This document shows, piece after piece, positions 6,316-13,037 of a DNA stretch of 13,037 nucleotides. This stretch comes from Candidatus Altarchaeum sp. (lineage in GTDB: Archaea; Altiarchaeota; Altiarchaeia; Altiarchaeales; Altiarchaeaceae). Each line of letters begins with the position of its first letter. The stretch's first letter is position 1. The notes below the pieces were generated by a model that was not told where the DNA came from, did not search any database, and was given only the letters and a program-made list of their open reading frames with translations. Location of the stretch: the NCBI GenBank assembly GCA_018260615.1, contig JAGWDQ010000022.1, forward strand, positions 1 to 13,037. Reading direction: 5' to 3'. The position numbers and the translations under genes were made by a program.

Positions 6316-6404
6316 ATACATACAAAAGTTTCCCATTTCGCAAAAATTGGTTAATTATTTGTTTTAAATTTAGAAATATTTGATAAAAAAATCTCAAAAA
6401 TTTA

Positions 6405-6898
6405 GGTAGTGTCCCCAAATTATTAACAATGTCTTGATTCCGTCAAGACACCATTAAATAATTATCCTGATAAGGCCATTTTAAAATCACGAGATTTTAA
6501 AATATCCGGGCATCAGCGAGGTTATTTAAAAAATCTCATAGATTTTTTAAAGATTGAAAATTCTCAAAGAATTTTCAGTATTTCAAAAACGCAGAGTTTT
6601 TGAAATCTCAGAATGATAATGAAGTTATTTCAAAATTTATTTTGAAATCTCCGAATGAAATCCGCTCACTCTCGTTCGCGGATTTTTCAAACTTCACCTC
6701 ACTTTGTTCGGAGATTTACAAAATGCTTTGCATTTTGTAAGATTGAAAATCTTACAGATTTTCAGTATTTCAAATCTCTGTGATTTGAAAATCGTTTGAA
6801 AAATGAGATGAAATTAAAAATTATCATTTTAAAAATCTAAATTTATTGTTCGTGGGATAATCCCATCAGAATTTAATTAACGAGTTGGGGACACCACC
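6405..6898. mobile_element. 494-bp non-autonomous element (MITE) with IS1-like GGnnnTG termini
   Basis: Left end GGTAGTGTCCCCAAATTATTAA (6405-6426). Right end (6877-6898) reverse-complements to GGTGGTGTCCCCAACTCGTTAA, 18/22 identical. TTA flanks both ends (6402-6404, 6899-6901). No transposase ORF inside. Confidence 0.78.
6430..6790. repeat. Array of about ten adjacent hairpins/palindromes (BIME/REP-like) with a duplicated three-hairpin module
   Basis: Perfect stems of 8-12 bp at 6430-6450, 6478-6503, 6525-6551, 6555-6577, 6580-6606, 6627-6648, 6658-6685, 6716-6740, 6744-6764 and 6768-6790. An outer stem pairs 6645-6655 with 6707-6717. Confidence 0.9.
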
Positions 6899-7069
6899 TT
6901 ATTTTTTGATAAAAACAAAATGTTTTTTGATAAAAAACAAATTTTAAATAAAAAATAGCAAAATCAAATTAAAAATGGATAAATTTTTGATAAAAACTCT
7001 ATTTCACCAACAGAGTTTTAAACGGTCTCATTCATTTTAACTTGATACATAATAAATTATTAATTATAA

Positions 7070-7303
7070 CAAAAGTTTCCCATTTCAGAAAACAAATGTG
7101 TTGAAATGGGACAGTTACTAAATTACATCAATTTACCTCCAAAAATCAGATTATGTTTGGTAATAAATCTGCAAAAAATCCCATATTTTGGCAAATTTTT
7201 GCATCATTTTAAACTTTTGATATAATTTTCCCCGTTACAAGCCATATTGTTTTGTGATAAAACGATATTCGTAGGTGTTGTAATTCCAAATGGGAAACTT
7301 TTG
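7070..7303. mobile_element. 234-bp MITE with perfect 16-bp TIRs and a 7-bp target-site duplication
   Basis: CAAAAGTTTCCCATTT (7070-7085) and AAATGGGAAACTTTTG (7288-7303). Direct repeat ATTATAA at 7063-7069 and 7304-7310. No long ORF inside. Confidence 0.88.
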
Positions 7304-7356
7304 ATTATAAGATAAATTATAAAATTATAAAATAAAATAGTATAAAGTTTATAATA

Positions 7357-7428
7357 CAGGACTTACGCAAAAGCAATACAAATTTTTGGTTTTTAAGATT
7401 TTTCACAATGTAAAATGCGTAAGTCCTA
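7357..7428. mobile_element. 72-bp micro-MITE with 13-bp TIRs and a 5-bp target-site duplication
   Basis: CAGGACTTACGCA (7357-7369) and TGCGTAAGTCCTA (7416-7428), 12/13 inverted match. TAATA is duplicated at 7352-7356 and 7429-7433. Confidence 0.82.
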
Positions 7429-7439
7429 TAATATTTAAA

Positions 7440-9500
7440 ATGGATAAACCAAAGGAAAAAATTTTAATAACCTCTGCTCTGCCTTATGTAAATAACATCC
7501 CGCACATCGGAAACATCGTCGGAAGCCATCTTCCCGCAGACATATTTGCAAGATTTATGAGAACGCTAAATTACGATGTAACCTTTGTCGGAGGTGCGGA
7601 TGAACACGGAACTCCGATTGAAATTGCCGCCCAAAAGAAAAATTTAAATCCTAAGGAATTATGCGATTATTACTACAATATTCACAAAAAAATTTACGAA
7701 TGGCTAAATATAAGTTATGATATATTTTCAAGAACATCAAATGAAATCCACCATCGCACAACACAGGAATTTTTTACGGAAATTTACAAAAACGGATATA
7801 TTAAAGAAGGAAAAATTTCACTTCCCTACTGCGAAAAATGCAACAGGGTCTTGCCGGACAGATATGTTGAGGGAACCTGCCCTCACTGCGGATATGAAAA
7901 GGCAAGAGGTGACCAGTGCGAGATGTGCGGAAATATGCTAAATCCTACGGAACTGAAAAATCCGAGATGTGCAATCTGCGGTTCTAAGCCGGAGATTGTT
8001 GAAAGAACTCATTTGTTTTTTGAATTAAATAAGTTAAGCGCTCAATTAGAGGACTGGATTAAAAGCAAAAAAGGAATCTGGTCGTCTAATGTAATTGCAG
8101 AATCACTCGGCTGGATTAAAGAAGGACTAAAAGAAAGGTGCATAACGAGGAATATAAGATGGGGAGTTAAGGTTCCGCTTGAAAAATTTAAAGACAATGT
8201 TTTTTATGTGTGGTTTGATGCTCCGATTGGATATATTTCTTTTACTAATGAATTAAAAAAGGAAAATTTATGGAAAAAGGACAGCAATAATGCAGGCAAT
8301 GTCAAAATTTATCATTTCATTGGAAAGGACAACATAATATTTCATACGATTTTCTGGCCTGCGATGCTACTTGCGAACAATAAATTTAATCTGCCTTACA
8401 ATGTCGTCGGACTGCAGTATCTGAATTATGAAGGCGGAAAAATTTCAAAGTCGCAGAACAGAGGGATATTCTGTGAAAATTTGTCTGACAGCGGGATTGA
8501 TAGCGATGTGTGGAGATTTTATCTAACTTTCCTGATTCCTGAAAACAGCGATGCCGAATGGAAATGGGACGAATTTCTGAATAAAACGAACAGTGAATTA
8601 ATCGGAAATTTCGGAAATTTTGTAAACCGGACATTATTGTTCATTCAGAAAAATTTTAACGGAAAAATAAATTTTAAGGAGCTCAATTTTGGCGATGATG
8701 AAGTAGAAGTACTGGGCAAAGTCAGGAGAAAAGCAGAAGAACATAAGCAAACAATGTTAAATGGACACCTTCGTGATGGACTGAAAAAAATTCTGGAAAT
8801 CAGCGATATTGGCAATGAGTATATGCAAAAAAAGGCGCCGTGGAAAAATTTAAAAGAAAATTTTGAGGAGAGCAGGAAGACAATGTATTGCTGTGCATTA
8901 ATTTGTTATGAGCTGGCAAATATTTGTCATCCGTTTTTGCCAAATTCATCGGGAAAAATTTTTGGGATGTTAAATTTAAAAGTTGAACCGAAATTTGAAA
9001 ATGTTTATAAAGAGGATATTGAATTTGAAATTAAAAATGTTGTTACTCTATTTAAGAAAATGGATGAAAAAATTATTGATGAAATAAAAGGAAATGTCTC
9101 AAAAATCGGGGTTGAAACAAAGGAAGGTAAAAAAGCGGAAGAAAAGGAAGAAATAAAGATGGAAAATGAAGAAAATAAAGAAATTACTTATGAGGACTTT
9201 AAAAAGCTCAATTTAAAGATCGGAACAATTGAGCAGGCAGAAGAAATTCCAAAATCGGACCGGCTGCTAAAACTCACGGTAAATTTGGGACCGGAAAAAC
9301 GAATCATCCTCGCGGGAATAAAGAAATTTTATGATGCAGGGGATTTGATAAATAAGCAGGTGATTGTACTTACAAATTTAAAACCGAGAAAGATGCTCAA
9401 TATTGAATCGCAGGGAATGATTCTGGCTGCTGAGGATGAGGAAGGAATAAAACTGCTGATTCCTGATAAAAAGGCAAAAGAGGGAAGCGAAATCGGGTAA
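7440..9500 (+). CDS. metG: Methionine--tRNA ligase with C-terminal tRNA-binding (OB-fold) domain
   Basis: ITSALPYVNNIPHIGN (HIGH), four CxxC zinc-knuckle motifs, YVWFDA, GKDNI.FH, KISKS (KMSKS) and a C-terminal Trbp111-like domain. Start set to ATG 7440 (MDKPK, 686 aa) because the ORF-track TTG at 7386 lies inside the micro-MITE. Confidence 0.97.
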   Translation: MDKPKEKILITSALPYVNNIPHIGNIVGSHLPADIFARFMRTLNYDVTFVGGADEHGTPIEIAAQKKNLNPKELCDYYYNIHKKIYEWLNISYDIFSRTSNEIHHRTTQEFFTEIYKNGYIKEGKISLPYCEKCNRVLPDRYVEGTCPHCGYEKARGDQCEMCGNMLNPTELKNPRCAICGSKPEIVERTHLFFELNKLSAQLEDWIKSKKGIWSSNVIAESLGWIKEGLKERCITRNIRWGVKVPLEKFKDNVFYVWFDAPIGYISFTNELKKENLWKKDSNNAGNVKIYHFIGKDNIIFHTIFWPAMLLANNKFNLPYNVVGLQYLNYEGGKISKSQNRGIFCENLSDSGIDSDVWRFYLTFLIPENSDAEWKWDEFLNKTNSELIGNFGNFVNRTLLFIQKNFNGKINFKELNFGDDEVEVLGKVRRKAEEHKQTMLNGHLRDGLKKILEISDIGNEYMQKKAPWKNLKENFEESRKTMYCCALICYELANICHPFLPNSSGKIFGMLNLKVEPKFENVYKEDIEFEIKNVVTLFKKMDEKIIDEIKGNVSKIGVETKEGKKAEEKEEIKMENEENKEITYEDFKKLNLKIGTIEQAEEIPKSDRLLKLTVNLGPEKRIILAGIKKFYDAGDLINKQVIVLTNLKPRKMLNIESQGMILAAEDEEGIKLLIPDKKAKEGSEIG

Positions 9501-9612: not shown

Positions 9613-11028
9613 ATGGATCTTGACGAACTTATTAAAAAAGGAGAATCAGAAGAGATTGAATTTAAAAAATCATTAGCGGAGAGAAAGGAAATCCTTGAAA
9701 CAATTTCAGCGTTTGCGAATTCCAGAGGAGGGACTATCTTTGTCGGAATAGAGGAAAACAGGAATGGCTCCGTAAAGGATATTCCTGGAATTGTGATTAA
9801 GGGAAAGGAAATTGAGGATTTAAGTAATGAAATCAGGCAAAATACCGATCCTGTAATATTTCCCTCTATTGAAGTAAAGGATATTAAAGGAAAGCCGGTT
9901 CTGGTTATTAAAGTAAATAAAAATCCGCTCACTGTATTTGCAACGCTCAATAAAATTCCCGTAGCATTTAAAAGAGTCGGGAAGACAAACCCGAAAATAG
10001 ATGTGAATGAATTAAGAAGGATTTTTTCGGAAAGCAAAGAATTTATATGGGATTTCCGGATTTGTGAGGAAGCAACATTAACAGATATTGATTGGGAATT
10101 TGTAGAAAAATTTTTCATGCCTTTATATGAAACAATTTCAGAAAAAAATATCATTAGCGGATTAGAAAACCTGCTTGAGTCATTACATTGTCTAAAAGAA
10201 AATAAACCAACAAATGCGGGAATTTTGTTGTTTGGAAAAGATCCGCAGAAATTTTTTATGAATTCTTATGTTGCACTGGCCAGATACAGAGGGAATGAAA
10301 TCGGCATCGAGCGATTGGACTACAAAGAATTCTCAGGAAATTTATTTCAGCAGATAGATAACTGCGATAAATACATAAAAGAACATATTGCGATAATGTC
10401 AAGATTGCTGCCATACAGAGTGAGAAGAGAGGATATTCCTGAATATGGATTGTTCTCAATAAGGGAATTGATAACAAACGCCGTCTGTCACAGAGATTAC
10501 AGCAATCCTCACACCAAAGTAATAATCAAGATGTTTTCAAACAGGATTGAACTCTATAATCCGGGTTGTCTGCCCGGGGAAGTAACTCCTGATAATATAA
10601 CTGAAAAGCAATATTCCAGAAATTCCGTTATTGCGAGGGTTCTTGCAAAGGTAGATTACATTGAAGATATGGGTGAGGGATGGAATAAAATAATTGATGA
10701 ACATAAGAAACATATCTTAAAGCCGGAATTGCCATCAATAAAAGCTGACAGGGATAGTGTATTAATAACCTTATTTTCCACAAAAGATAAATTTGAGGAA
10801 GAGAAATTTGAGGTAGAATTAAATCACAGACAAAAAAGGGCTATAGAGCATATAAAAAAGTATGGGAAAATAACCAATAAGGACTACAGAAAGCTATTTT
10901 TGGAGATAAGTGACAGGACGGTTTTAGGAGATCTAACGGATTTAGTTAGAAAGGAAATTTTAACAAAGAAAGGGAGAACGAAAGGGGCGTATTATATAAT
11001 ACATAATTCCGAAATAATTCCGAAATAA
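9613..11028 (+). CDS. AlbA_2 (Schlafen-like) domain + HATPase_c_4 (often annotated RecG C-terminal) + winged-helix HTH protein
   Basis: 471 aa. N-terminal GESEEIEFKKS...SAFANSRGGTIFVGI. Middle RELITNAVCHRDYS, LYNPG, SRNSVIA and IEDMGEG. C-terminal LNHRQ...KITNKDYRKL...SDRTV..DL..LV....L...G..KGAYY. Confidence 0.88.
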   Translation: MDLDELIKKGESEEIEFKKSLAERKEILETISAFANSRGGTIFVGIEENRNGSVKDIPGIVIKGKEIEDLSNEIRQNTDPVIFPSIEVKDIKGKPVLVIKVNKNPLTVFATLNKIPVAFKRVGKTNPKIDVNELRRIFSESKEFIWDFRICEEATLTDIDWEFVEKFFMPLYETISEKNIISGLENLLESLHCLKENKPTNAGILLFGKDPQKFFMNSYVALARYRGNEIGIERLDYKEFSGNLFQQIDNCDKYIKEHIAIMSRLLPYRVRREDIPEYGLFSIRELITNAVCHRDYSNPHTKVIIKMFSNRIELYNPGCLPGEVTPDNITEKQYSRNSVIARVLAKVDYIEDMGEGWNKIIDEHKKHILKPELPSIKADRDSVLITLFSTKDKFEEEKFEVELNHRQKRAIEHIKKYGKITNKDYRKLFLEISDRTVLGDLTDLVRKEILTKKGRTKGAYYIIHNSEIIPK

Positions 11029-11035
11029 TTCCGAA
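11003..11035. repeat. Perfect 11-bp tandem repeat (ATAATTCCGAA)x3 spanning the stop codon of the AlbA_2 gene
   Basis: Copies at 11003-11013, 11014-11024 and 11025-11035. The TAA stop (11026-11028) is in the third copy. Confidence 0.93.
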
Positions 11036-11162
11036 ATGAAAAATGGGACACAAATGCGACGCAAAAAAGAAAGAACTGGAAAATATGAACTTCGGCAAGA
11101 ATATATAAAACGGGTAAGATAATTTTAGTTTCAAAATAATTTCAAAATTTTAAAATACAAAA

Positions 11163-13037
11163 ATGGATATAAAAAACATATTTAAAAATAGTTTAAAAAA
11201 GGCAGCAGAAATAACAAAGTATGTAAAAGGAAAGGATGTTGCCAAGCTGGCATTAAAATCCGCATCAGGTATTCTGACTATGTGCGGCATACCTGTTGGC
11301 ATACCTGTTGAAATAATACTTGGAATAGATTCATCAATTGAAAAACAAAAAGATAAAGAAGAAGTCGGCAAGTGGATGAAATTGCTGGAAAATATAGAAA
11401 AAAATACAAAAAACACAAAAGAATTTGAAGAAACTCTAAAAGAAAACATAACGAAAAACAAAGATGTTTTAGAAACTCTTAAAAATATTGCTGATGAAAT
11501 CAAATCTTATGATGAATATCAGATAAAGCAAATAAGCAAAGAAACAGAATATCCTTATGAAGATCTGCAAAAATTTCAAACAGAGGTTACAAAAAATTTT
11601 GATGAAATTAATAAAAAATTAGACAAATTAATAAACTTAATAGAGTCCCCGCTTCTTACGCCAGATGAGTTTGAACGAAGACAAAAAATCAAAATTTTAT
11701 TAAAATATAGATTTATTGGCAGAACTGATGAACTTCAAGAACTTCGCAAGTTTTTAGATGGCAATGAAAAGATAAAACTCATTACCGGAGGTGGAGGAGT
11801 GGGAAAAACAAGATTTGTCATAGAATTTGCAAAGCAAGTTGAAAAGAGGGATAACCAGGATGTTTATTTTATACATCCCTACAATAATTTTAATTTTGGT
11901 TTAGTGCCGACAGAAAAAAAGGTCTTACTTATCTTAGATGACTCATCAAGATATACTGGCAGAGATAAACTTATTGATGCTGTTTTAAATCCGCATTCAA
12001 AAGAAAGAGATACAAAACTTTTGCTTATTGACAGACCTATTTTTAAAAATTCAATTGAAGCTGAATTAAAAAGGCAGGAAGCAACGGAGAATATTTTTTC
12101 ATCTCTTCAAATTAAAAAAGGAGACATACTTGGATTTTTAAAGGAGAATTTTCCAGAGATTGATGAAGATACAGATAAAAAAATAGAAAGTGAGTGTAAA
12201 AATAGTTTTATATATGCTGTATTTTATGCGGAATATTATAATAAGAAAAAAGAGATTGGTAATTTAAACGATATATTATCAGTCAGGTGTGAAAATTACA
12301 TAAAAGACATTGCAATGAGAAAAAACCAGAAAGAAGAGGACACTAAAAAAATTATTTCTCTGATTTCGTTAATCAGACCTGTGAAGTGGGATAGTGATAA
12401 AATCTACCTTGAAGACAATTTAACTTTAAAAAACTACGAAATTTTGGAAGAAATTAAAGATGTTGCACAACTTGAAAACAACGACATCTTACTTTTTTCT
12501 GATAATAGTGAACTTGAAATTAAACCAGACCCAATTGCAGATTATATATTGTCTGAATTTTTAAGAGATGAGAAATTTGATAACTGGCTAAAAAAGGTAC
12601 TCCCTTACATGCCACGAAGAATTGCATATAATCTTTTTGTCACTCCGAGATTTAATGAAAAAATTCAGGATGAAATTTCCGGATTGCTTGGTAAAATATG
12701 GGAGAAATTAAATACTTCTGAATTTAAGAGTCCGGAATACTTTGAGGCGATCATAATGTTCACTGGCGATTTTCGTTCTTTTAAATTTTTTGATATTGAA
12801 AAGATAAATGCAAAACAGTGGATAGAAAATTATAATGGCATCTCTGTTGATTATAAAGATGATGAAGGGGTGAGAGGAGAACTTGCCAAGGGTTTGTATA
12901 ATGCAGCAACTTATTACGGAACAGAAAAGAAATTTGATGAAATGGAGAAATGCCTGAATGAATTAAGAAAACTTCATGAAAGTTATAAAGATGATGAAGG
13001 GGTGAGAGGAGAACTTGCCAAGGGTTTGTATAATGCA
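11163..13037 (+). CDS. NLR-like STAND P-loop NTPase with N-terminal helical domain and C-terminal TPR-like repeats; 3'-truncated by the window end
   Basis: Manual translation gives 625 codons with no stop from ATG 11163. FIGRTDEL (11712), Walker A GGGGVGKT (11787-11810), Walker B VLLILDD (11922-11942), KLLLIDR (sensor-1-like), KPDPIADY (about 12522, at the MHD-like position), then 44-aa helical repeats. Confidence 0.85.
   Translation, partial: MDIKNIFKNSLKKAAEITKYVKGKDVAKLALKSASGILTMCGIPVGIPVEIILGIDSSIEKQKDKEEVGKWMKLLENIEKNTKNTKEFEETLKENITKNKDVLETLKNIADEIKSYDEYQIKQISKETEYPYEDLQKFQTEVTKNFDEINKKLDKLINLIESPLLTPDEFERRQKIKILLKYRFIGRTDELQELRKFLDGNEKIKLITGGGGVGKTRFVIEFAKQVEKRDNQDVYFIHPYNNFNFGLVPTEKKVLLILDDSSRYTGRDKLIDAVLNPHSKERDTKLLLIDRPIFKNSIEAELKRQEATENIFSSLQIKKGDILGFLKENFPEIDEDTDKKIESECKNSFIYAVFYAEYYNKKKEIGNLNDILSVRCENYIKDIAMRKNQKEEDTKKIISLISLIRPVKWDSDKIYLEDNLTLKNYEILEEIKDVAQLENNDILLFSDNSELEIKPDPIADYILSEFLRDEKFDNWLKKVLPYMPRRIAYNLFVTPRFNEKIQDEISGLLGKIWEKLNTSEFKSPEYFEAIIMFTGDFRSFKFFDIEKINAKQWIENYNGISVDYKDDEGVRGELAKGLYNAATYYGTEKKFDEMEKCLNELRKLHESYKDDEGVRGELAKGLYNA
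11286..11309. repeat. In-frame 12-bp tandem duplication (GGCATACCTGTT)x2 encoding GIPV-GIPV
   Basis: Exact copies at 11286-11297 and 11298-11309. Confidence 0.9.
12851..13037 (+). repeat. 132-bp (44-aa) intragenic tandem repeat, nucleotide-identical over the visible overlap
   Basis: 12851-12905 equals 12983-13037 (55/55 bp). Unit: YKDDEGVRGELAKGLYNAATYYGTEKKFDEMEKCLNELRKLHES. Confidence 0.93.

Follow-up and report, generated by a model that had tools for sequence, protein, structure and literature searches.

The 13,037-nt stretch of DNA analysed here (the window) is the whole of contig C22 (GenBank accession number JAGWDQ010000022.1) of the Candidatus Altarchaeum sp. assembly G000 (GCA_018260615.1; 2.23 Mb, 148 contigs, 87% complete). 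Its 3'-end was found to carry a gene predicted to encode a stand-alone ATPase of the STAND (signal transduction ATPases with numerous domains) superfamily, which resembles NOD-like receptors (NLRs) and belongs to an uncurated, mainly archaeal clade. Taken as a whole, the gene product is probably (about 0.6) an immune-type sensor directed against viruses or other mobile elements, a reading supported by the modularity of the family, the accessory status of the gene, an excess of replacement changes between strains and the genomic contexts of relatives. An earlier note, made from the letters of the window, had proposed an archaeal receptor of this kind with an effector at its N-terminus. That the host is an archaeon was borne out by the ribosomal protein S28e and TATA-binding protein genes of the genome, markers that, among 14 control genomes, matched only the four archaeal ones.

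The ATG at position 11163 opens a 625-codon frame on the forward strand that is free of stop codons through the contig end at 13037. The frame is indeed absent from the open reading frame (ORF) track, as had been remarked, and shows up only with open-ended ORFs included, because it runs off the contig without a stop. It is a real gene and not a chance frame: the 90% collection contains 13 homologues at E ≤ 4.6e-69. The final bases of the window reappear at the start of contig C57 of the same assembly, where a segment coding for 147 further amino acids (aa) and a stop codon is followed by a gene for a GT4 glycosyltransferase. The repeat unit in this gene is 44 aa (132 nt) long and the first 71 nt of C57 match the remainder of the unit exactly; the assembly broke at this point because of the exact 132-nt repeat. 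The shortest join of the two contigs, with a 7-nt gap, gives two full units, a degenerate terminal unit and a protein of 775 aa, and more units are possible, such that the full protein is predicted to comprise at least 775 aa. P0003, a full-length protein found in a different metagenome, is 95% identical and 731 aa long, with one full repeat unit. Its contig, L007, carries in order the end of the methionyl-tRNA synthetase (MetRS) gene, an AlbA_2/HATPase_c_4 gene, the STAND gene and a downstream gene with 98.5% nucleotide identity to the start of the GT4 gene on C57. As the gene order is the same, the join is supported, and as P0003 has one full unit, the window strain and L007 differ by at least one. 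A tblastn search of the genome detected no paralogue. The intergenic region preceding the gene (Table 1) presumably holds its own predicted promoter.

The STAND module claimed by the earlier note was confirmed at the level of sequence motifs and of fold. All four motifs it had quoted are present in the translation (RFIGR, aa 183–187; GGGGVGKT, aa 209–216; VLLILDD, aa 254–260; PDPIADY, aa 455–461), and across 35 sequences the Walker A residue K215 is invariant and the Walker B residue D259 nearly so. The segment KLLLIDRPIF contains a sensor-1-type arginine, R291, invariant in A1 and A2 and nearly so in A3, which may be positionally equivalent to RNBS-B of NB-ARC proteins. Similarly KPDPIADY (KYDLIAEY in relatives), in which D456 is invariant and histidine is lacking, would occupy the position that the MHD motif has in NB-ARC proteins. 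The nucleotide-binding domain is followed by a helical domain and then a winged helix, i.e. the nucleotide-oligomerisation domain (NOD) architecture, unlike a plain AAA+ nucleotide-binding domain plus lid. A confident AlphaFold model aligned with Avs5, a Pyrococcus STAND protein with tetratricopeptide repeats (TPR), NLRC4, NLRP3, MalT and Apaf-1, the matches spanning the nucleotide-binding, helical and winged-helix domains; that with NLRC4 extended to model residue 539. EfAvs5 was the best Foldseek match (8.6e-9), followed by the PH0952-type protein (PDB 6mfv; 2.2e-7, 617 columns, 12% identity), and Avs3 and Avs4 matched as well. On the strength of this modelled fold, the identity of the product as a STAND NTPase appears hardly open to doubt. 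A housekeeping ATPase is ruled out by the fold and the patchy distribution.

The protein falls outside all curated models of Pfam, NCBIfam and PADLOC. The Pfam scores of the window protein (P0001) were below threshold for AAA_16 (26 bits against 32.6), ATPase_2 (23.2 against 33.2) and nSTAND5 (18.6 against 34), and NB-ARC (PF00931), NACHT (PF05729) and nSTAND (PF25199, PF20720) gave no match above the gathering threshold. Sub-threshold matches were found among 13 family members to NACHT (5), NB-ARC (1) and ATPase_2 (7). NCBIfam gave far-sub-threshold P-loop matches only, and a sequence search of the PDB with the family profile gave matches at the P-loop level only (ClpC; NB-ARC, 3.5e-3). Where relatives match PADLOC models, it is solely by way of a TIR, caspase, PNP or trypsin domain.

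Superstructure-forming repeats, the sensor that characterises the STAND superfamily, are present at the C-terminus. They are two-helix units of 43 aa (44 in the window protein), with 2–10 copies per family protein, in which the scaffold V-R..LA..L.NA..Y.....ME..L..L..LH is conserved with variable positions in between. A conserved helical tail of ~100 aa, encoded on C57, comes after the repeats. Of the tripartite layout described earlier, the order of N-terminal module, NOD switch and helical repeats thus stood, and the tail has to be added as a fourth part.

A profile of residues 1–560, built from 11 sequences, retrieved 56 representative clusters at E ≤ 1e-30, 344 at ≤ 1e-10 and 4,871 at ≤ 1e-3. 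The family is mostly archaeal, with members in Methanophagales, Candidatus Methanoperedens and a Halobacteriota archaeon, and in one metagenome-assembled genome labelled Zixiibacteriota. Several members align only from the linker PL.P.EEFERR..LLKY.F.GR onward and carry other domains upstream; the profile matches of these effector-swapped relatives begin at the pre-NOD linker. Domains assigned by E-value in this N-terminal slot of members sharing the core were Trypsin_2 in P0023 (1.8e-12), PNP_UDP_1 in P0027 (6.8e-18), Peptidase_C14 in P0034 (8e-21) and, in the distant member P0039, SLFN_AlbA_2 (2.2e-14), while in P0052 a TIR_2 domain (5e-30) is followed by a full N-terminal module of the kind here called type A and then by the NTPase. 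Two further members have two clear transmembrane (TM) helices directly before the NOD, and at least four other unrecognised N-terminal types occur. The forms with differing domains lie on separate branches of a maximum-likelihood NOD tree, and the N-terminal position of the family is thus a swappable output slot, as in Avs, fungal and plant NLRs.

Two of the other N-terminal types have features of their own. Type-B N-termini (P0010, P0025, P0059) have a Gly-rich hydrophobic first helix with an acidic residue at position 4, e.g. MIIDPLFASLAGGLLASALSGVVGNR, which fits the published description of Bell/HeLo-type membrane-targeting heads. Type-D N-termini (P0042, P0049, P0055; ~220–260 aa) share a domain starting G-x-x-F-E ... 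L-L-x-x-L-L, which has no Pfam match and occupies the slot used by enzymatic effectors.

Divergence between the window and L007 was counted by the Nei-Gojobori method over codons 1–619, leaving out the last, out-of-register unit. The STAND genes differ by 28 nonsynonymous (N) and 1 synonymous (S) changes, all of single nucleotides, with a ratio of nonsynonymous to synonymous divergence (pN/pS) of 6.7 (Fisher p 0.015). In the same comparison the AlbA_2 gene had 0N/2S, and the ratio was 0.13 for the MetRS C-terminus and 0.15 for GT4. No change fell in aa 1–165, while aa 371–470 had 14N/0S and the first repeat 6N/0S; all 14 replacements in the former lie within aa 386–439, in helices of the winged-helix domain. 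Such a replacement excess is the pattern that would be expected for a receptor surface under diversifying selection. The idea that the AlbA_2 gene and the 5' half of the STAND gene form a cassette with its own history, suggested by their lower synonymous divergence, was considered and dropped, the flank differences being themselves clustered. In all, 11 of the 15 differences in the C-terminal (tRNA_bind) part of MetRS fall within ~100 nt (9207–9304), which may be a recombination tract, and about 6 differences are spread over the next 2.6 kb.

Searches of 40 related genomes, of which three belong to the same genus and the others to the same class and many are incomplete, did not detect the protein. 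In the same-genus genome G003 the MetRS gene is directly followed by GT4, i.e. an empty site for the AlbA_2 and STAND pair, and in G001 and G002 other genes follow MetRS. Because of this absence and the empty site, the gene is, on genome comparison, accessory. A housekeeping-like gene, or one conserved and syntenic in the lineage with invariant repeats, had been named in the earlier note as evidence to the contrary; neither the conservation nor the synteny was found, and the repeat number varies.

The context survey covered about seven independent loci, and no operon partner was common to the homologue loci examined. In Methanoperedens (L014/L015; CP113843.1, 76,870 nt) the protein record of the family member bears the name 'plasmid', and a tyrosine integrase is encoded two genes away from this copy, with a DDE transposase and a DEAD/Helicase_C/MZB helicase pair close by. 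The caspase form (L018:3149-10792, Logan SRR34572458) adjoins PolB (family-B DNA polymerase), PriX and genes of unassigned function, and this locus looks like a self-replicating mobile element or virus. The PNP form is near Nmad3 and HD_3 genes. At L020:3328-13882 (GCA_025960485.1, JAHLEJ010000087.1) a free AlbA_2 gene, the P0039 fusion and a complete Type I restriction-modification (R-M) system (HsdM/S/R) occur in this order, and a KAP NTPase comes next on the sister contig L021; the L020 stretch is a small defence island. Immune-type effectors or proximity to defence genes, by which the published survey (PMC13581612) recognises defence-associated STANDs, were found in the family and not at the window's own locus.

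Table 1 Features of the STAND gene and its upstream region; coordinates are those of the window.
Feature	Coordinates	Strand	Residues and remarks
Schlafen AlbA_2 + HATPase_c_4 gene	9613..11028	+	possible partner; 134 nt upstream of STAND gene
A/T-rich intergenic region	11029..11162	+	134 nt; TATA-like runs; 1 base differs from L007
STAND (NLR-like) NTPase gene, 5' 625 codons	11163..13037	+	continuation G000:C57:3-446
Basic amphipathic helix	11163..11252	+	aa 1–30; K+R 8, D+E 3; hydrophobic moment 1.5–1.7
Gly/Pro-rich hydrophobic segment	11253..11333	+	aa 31–57; Kyte-Doolittle 19-residue maximum 2.04
Highly charged helical stalk, coiled-coil-like	11334..11642	+	aa 58–160; K+R 20, D+E 25
Pre-NOD linker (SPLLTPDEFERR..LLKYRFIGR)	11643..11732	+	aa 161–190; start of family conservation
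Nucleotide-binding domain	11712..12122	+	aa 184–320; motifs, alignments, model
Walker A, GGGGVGKT	11787-11810	+	
Walker B, VLLILDD	11922-11942	+	
Sensor-1-like R291	12033-12035	+	
NOD helical domain 1	12126..12323	+	aa 322–387; model, alignments to NLRC4, NLRP3, MalT
Hypervariable patch	12318..12479	+	aa 386–439; 14N/0S vs 95%-identical allele
Winged-helix domain with LISLISLIRPVKW and KPDPIADY	12333..12572	+	aa 391–470
Second helical (arm / HD2-like) region	12576..12842	+	aa 472–560; NOD-to-repeat link
Repeat unit 1, two helices	12852..12983	+	44 aa; 6N/0S between strains
Repeat unit 2, first 54 nt	12984..13037	+	all 54 nt identical to unit 1

The proposal of a pattern-recognition receptor gained indirect support in its sensor part, from the ratio of 6.7 against 0.13–0.15 in the flanking genes, the immune-type domains in the slot of relatives and the mobile-element and defence contexts of the latter, but none in its effector part. 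Several observations weigh against an immune-type sensor. The window gene lies among housekeeping genes with no recognisable defence island, and a PADLOC-DB 2.0 search with P0001 matched only mad8 (1.1e-3) and PDC-M09A (0.15), with no defence model matching the NTPase. The sensor is short, ~210 aa after residue 560; the 2026 survey clustered only defence-associated sensors of at least 400 aa (PMC13581612). The pN/pS of 6.7 derives from two metagenome-assembled alleles and one synonymous change, and the coincidence of repeat substitutions with the family's hypervariable repeat positions (3 of 6) is weak and not significant. As for the N-terminus, aa 1–165 have no fold, Pfam, Atlas or sequence relative beyond P0003, 23% of the long ORFs of the genome have an equally strong hydrophobic segment within their first 165 aa, and the type-A module is found behind a TIR domain in P0052.

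Since solved STANDs (Avs, Apaf-1, NLRC4, ZAR1) work in this manner, activation can be pictured as a sequence in which the repeats and the variable winged-helix patch would bind a foreign ligand, binding would release autoinhibition, ATP-dependent oligomerisation would follow and the N-terminal modules would be brought together. The output is the least certain step. The preferred guess, a tentative one, is that the clustered modules would act on the membrane and so cause abortive infection; that they would recruit a separate effector, for instance the AlbA_2 protein, seems somewhat less probable, and a module serving only as anchor or stalk is the alternative ranked after these two.

The N-terminal ~165 aa of the window protein are predicted to be helical, as had been claimed, at low confidence in both models, with a predicted local distance difference test (pLDDT) score below 50 for aa 31–57 in both. 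The AlphaFold2 model of this region by itself was poor (pLDDT 65, predicted template modelling score 0.29) and gave no Foldseek match (best E 4.6). ESM Atlas feature searches with aa 1–165 and with the type-A module of P0005 gave no usable match, Pfam gave none with 16 type-A modules, and hhalign of the window N-terminus against type-A and type-B profiles remained below 1% probability. Word-based searches of 5.8 billion proteins with the N-terminal module retrieved only the gene itself and P0003. A four-copy complex prediction of aa 1–165 scored 0.00 with the fold of the partners uncertain, and speaks neither for nor against binding.

The NOD of the window protein nests in a supported clade (95/97) otherwise bearing type-A N-termini, and the order of features is common with type A (~110 aa): a basic helix ending in LKK, a hydrophobic stretch, a KEFEE.LKE.I helix, a coiled coil and the linker. 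For these two reasons the window N-terminus would be a diverged and expanded derivative of type A. The effector role assigned to it in the earlier note was not borne out, there being no relative or fold match; as the type-A module sits between TIR and NTPase in P0052, such a role is not established, and the region may be an adaptor, a stalk or a membrane element or anchor instead.

The AlbA_2 + HATPase_c_4 gene on the same strand 134 nt upstream raises the alternative of a two-gene module, in which the STAND protein would be the sensor, the adjacent protein the effector or co-factor and the N-terminal module a recruiting adaptor. The pair is found in L007 in the same order and nearly identical, and both genes are lacking from the MetRS-GT4 junction of G003. 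At L020 the free AlbA_2 gene lies 45 nt upstream of P0039 and its AlbA_2 domain shares 37% identity (2e-31) with the one fused in P0039, such that the pairing recurs independently there and recalls NLR/effector gene pairs. On the other hand, no AlbA_2 neighbour was present at L004, L005/L014, L006 (where scanned), L016 or L018, a motif search with the STAND N-terminus and the product of the upstream AlbA_2 gene found nothing in common, and the AlbA_2/HATPase_c_4 family is expanded in the genome (24 matches), which makes chance adjacency plausible; a two-gene module is accordingly considered unlikely.

Of this expanded family, about 15 of the 24 matches are near full length and some have internal stops, with copies on C86, C99, C70, C134, C82, C79, C23, C76 and other contigs. 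The three same-genus genomes have 4–11 matches each, the best being 36% identical to the window copy, which has no close orthologue there. An 11-nt unit, ttccgaaataa, is present three times in tandem over the stop codon of the window copy (11006–11038) and is conserved in L007.

A non-immune STAND, i.e. a regulatory or scaffolding switch ATPase sensing an endogenous signal, as MalT, AfsR-type regulators and NPHP3 do, would be in keeping with the housekeeping genes found next to it in the window and next to homologues at several loci, with the short sensor and the lack of a recognisable effector domain, and with MalT being among the structural matches. It is harder to reconcile with the patchy distribution and the empty site, the strong excess of replacement changes, the death- or immunity-type enzymatic domains in the slot of relatives and the occurrence of the latter in mobile-element and R-M contexts; moreover, domain searches found no DNA-binding or other output domain. 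A non-immune role is thus rated as distinctly unlikely.

Least probable of these readings is a membrane-tethered sensor, whose hydrophobic segment would serve only as an anchor for monitoring entry or envelope events, killing or signalling being left to another agent. The hydrophobicity of the segment (Table 1), which follows a basic amphipathic helix, the two members with TM helices directly before the NOD and the position of the type-A module behind TIR in P0052 agree with tethering. Against it, aa 31–57 are rich in Gly and Pro, contain Glu and are not modelled as a helix, and in most type-A relatives the hydrophobic stretch has only ~15 residues, too short for a membrane span.

Compared with known systems, the predicted immune-type sensor is like Avs1–5 and Avs7–21 (PMC13581612) in being a single gene with an N-terminal effector slot, a STAND NTPase and an alpha-helical repeat sensor, in its patchy distribution and in having relatives with Avs-type effectors (TIR, protease, nucleosidase-like PNP). 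Unlike Avs, it has no PADLOC Avs or NLR match and is known from its sequence alone, its N-terminal module matches no recognised domain, its sensor, at ~210 aa, is far shorter and consists of near-identical 43/44-aa units, and its hosts are archaeal. With the PH0952-type protein (PDB 6mfv) it shares an archaeal STAND NTPase followed by TPR-like repeats, and its Pfam scores of 23–26 bits, below the cut-off of 33, recall archaeal ATPase_2 (PDB 2qen, Pfam PF01637); unlike both of these proteins, the window family can swap its N-terminal module and shows signs of diversifying selection.

DNA-identical repeats, repeat-number polymorphism and replacements within the repeats are likewise features of the fungal and bacterial NLRs whose TPR, WD or ANK repeats are highly conserved, of the HET-E/NWD2 type or NB-ARC-TPR proteins (10.1101/2020.01.06.895854). 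PNP_UDP, TIR and caspase N-termini and, at L020, a free and a fused copy of the same domain are further points in common with these NLRs, from which the window family differs in an NTPase below the NB-ARC and NACHT thresholds and in that no amyloid-motif pairing with a neighbour was detected. The hosts here are Altiarchaeum and Halobacteriota lineages, compared with Methanosarcinales in that study (10.1101/2020.01.06.895854). The membrane-targeting modules of NLRs, namely plant coiled-coil (CC) domains (ZAR1), fungal HeLo/HELL and prokaryotic Bell domains, are also helical, N-terminal to the NOD and provided with a hydrophobic element, and the family's type-B N-termini share with Bell/HeLo the hydrophobic first helix and the acidic position 4. 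In contrast, the first helix of the window protein is basic and amphipathic and its hydrophobic segment is internal (aa 31–57); no sequence or fold similarity of its N-terminus to CC, HeLo/HELL or Bell was found, and the resemblance is one of logic only.

Last, the MetRS gene of the window is separated from the divergent PQQ beta-propeller gene by ~1 kb (6337–7385) of 26–29% G+C in which there is no ORF of at least 80 aa.

The layout of N-terminal effector, STAND and TPR-like sensor is already well described in prokaryotes. In the 2026 survey, which spans bacteria and archaea, 198 of 589 STAND clades are classed as defence-associated (PMC13581612), and fungi, bacteria and some archaea are reported to have NLRs that combine DNA-identical repeats with death-type N-terminal domains (10.1101/2020.01.06.895854). 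Since such proteins are described, the window gene belongs to an already-known kind, and the general picture of STAND immunity is unchanged by it. The features that set this case apart are its host lineage, a short array of identical repeats, the clear signature of selection at strain level and the N-terminal module, which much of the family has in its type-A form. To our knowledge, the NLR-like receptors of prokaryotes that have been tested are nearly all bacterial, and the archaeal ones are known only as sequences, above all in uncultivated lineages of groundwater and of the methane cycle.

The gene is therefore of interest as a compact archaeal locus with unusually clear signs of an arms race, i.e. 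replacement-only divergence and a change in repeat number between near-identical strains, in a family where relatives show what fills the output slot (TIR, caspase, protease, PNP, Schlafen). It is a tractable test case for STAND signalling in archaea and a route to the function of a widespread unrecognised N-terminal module. That this module, in its type-A and expanded forms, might be a new NLR output domain, either a membrane-inserting suicide module set off by oligomerisation or an adaptor coupling an archaeal NLR to an AlbA_2 protein, is regarded as improbable; if true, the adaptor case would amount to an NLR-Schlafen innate-immune pathway in archaea.

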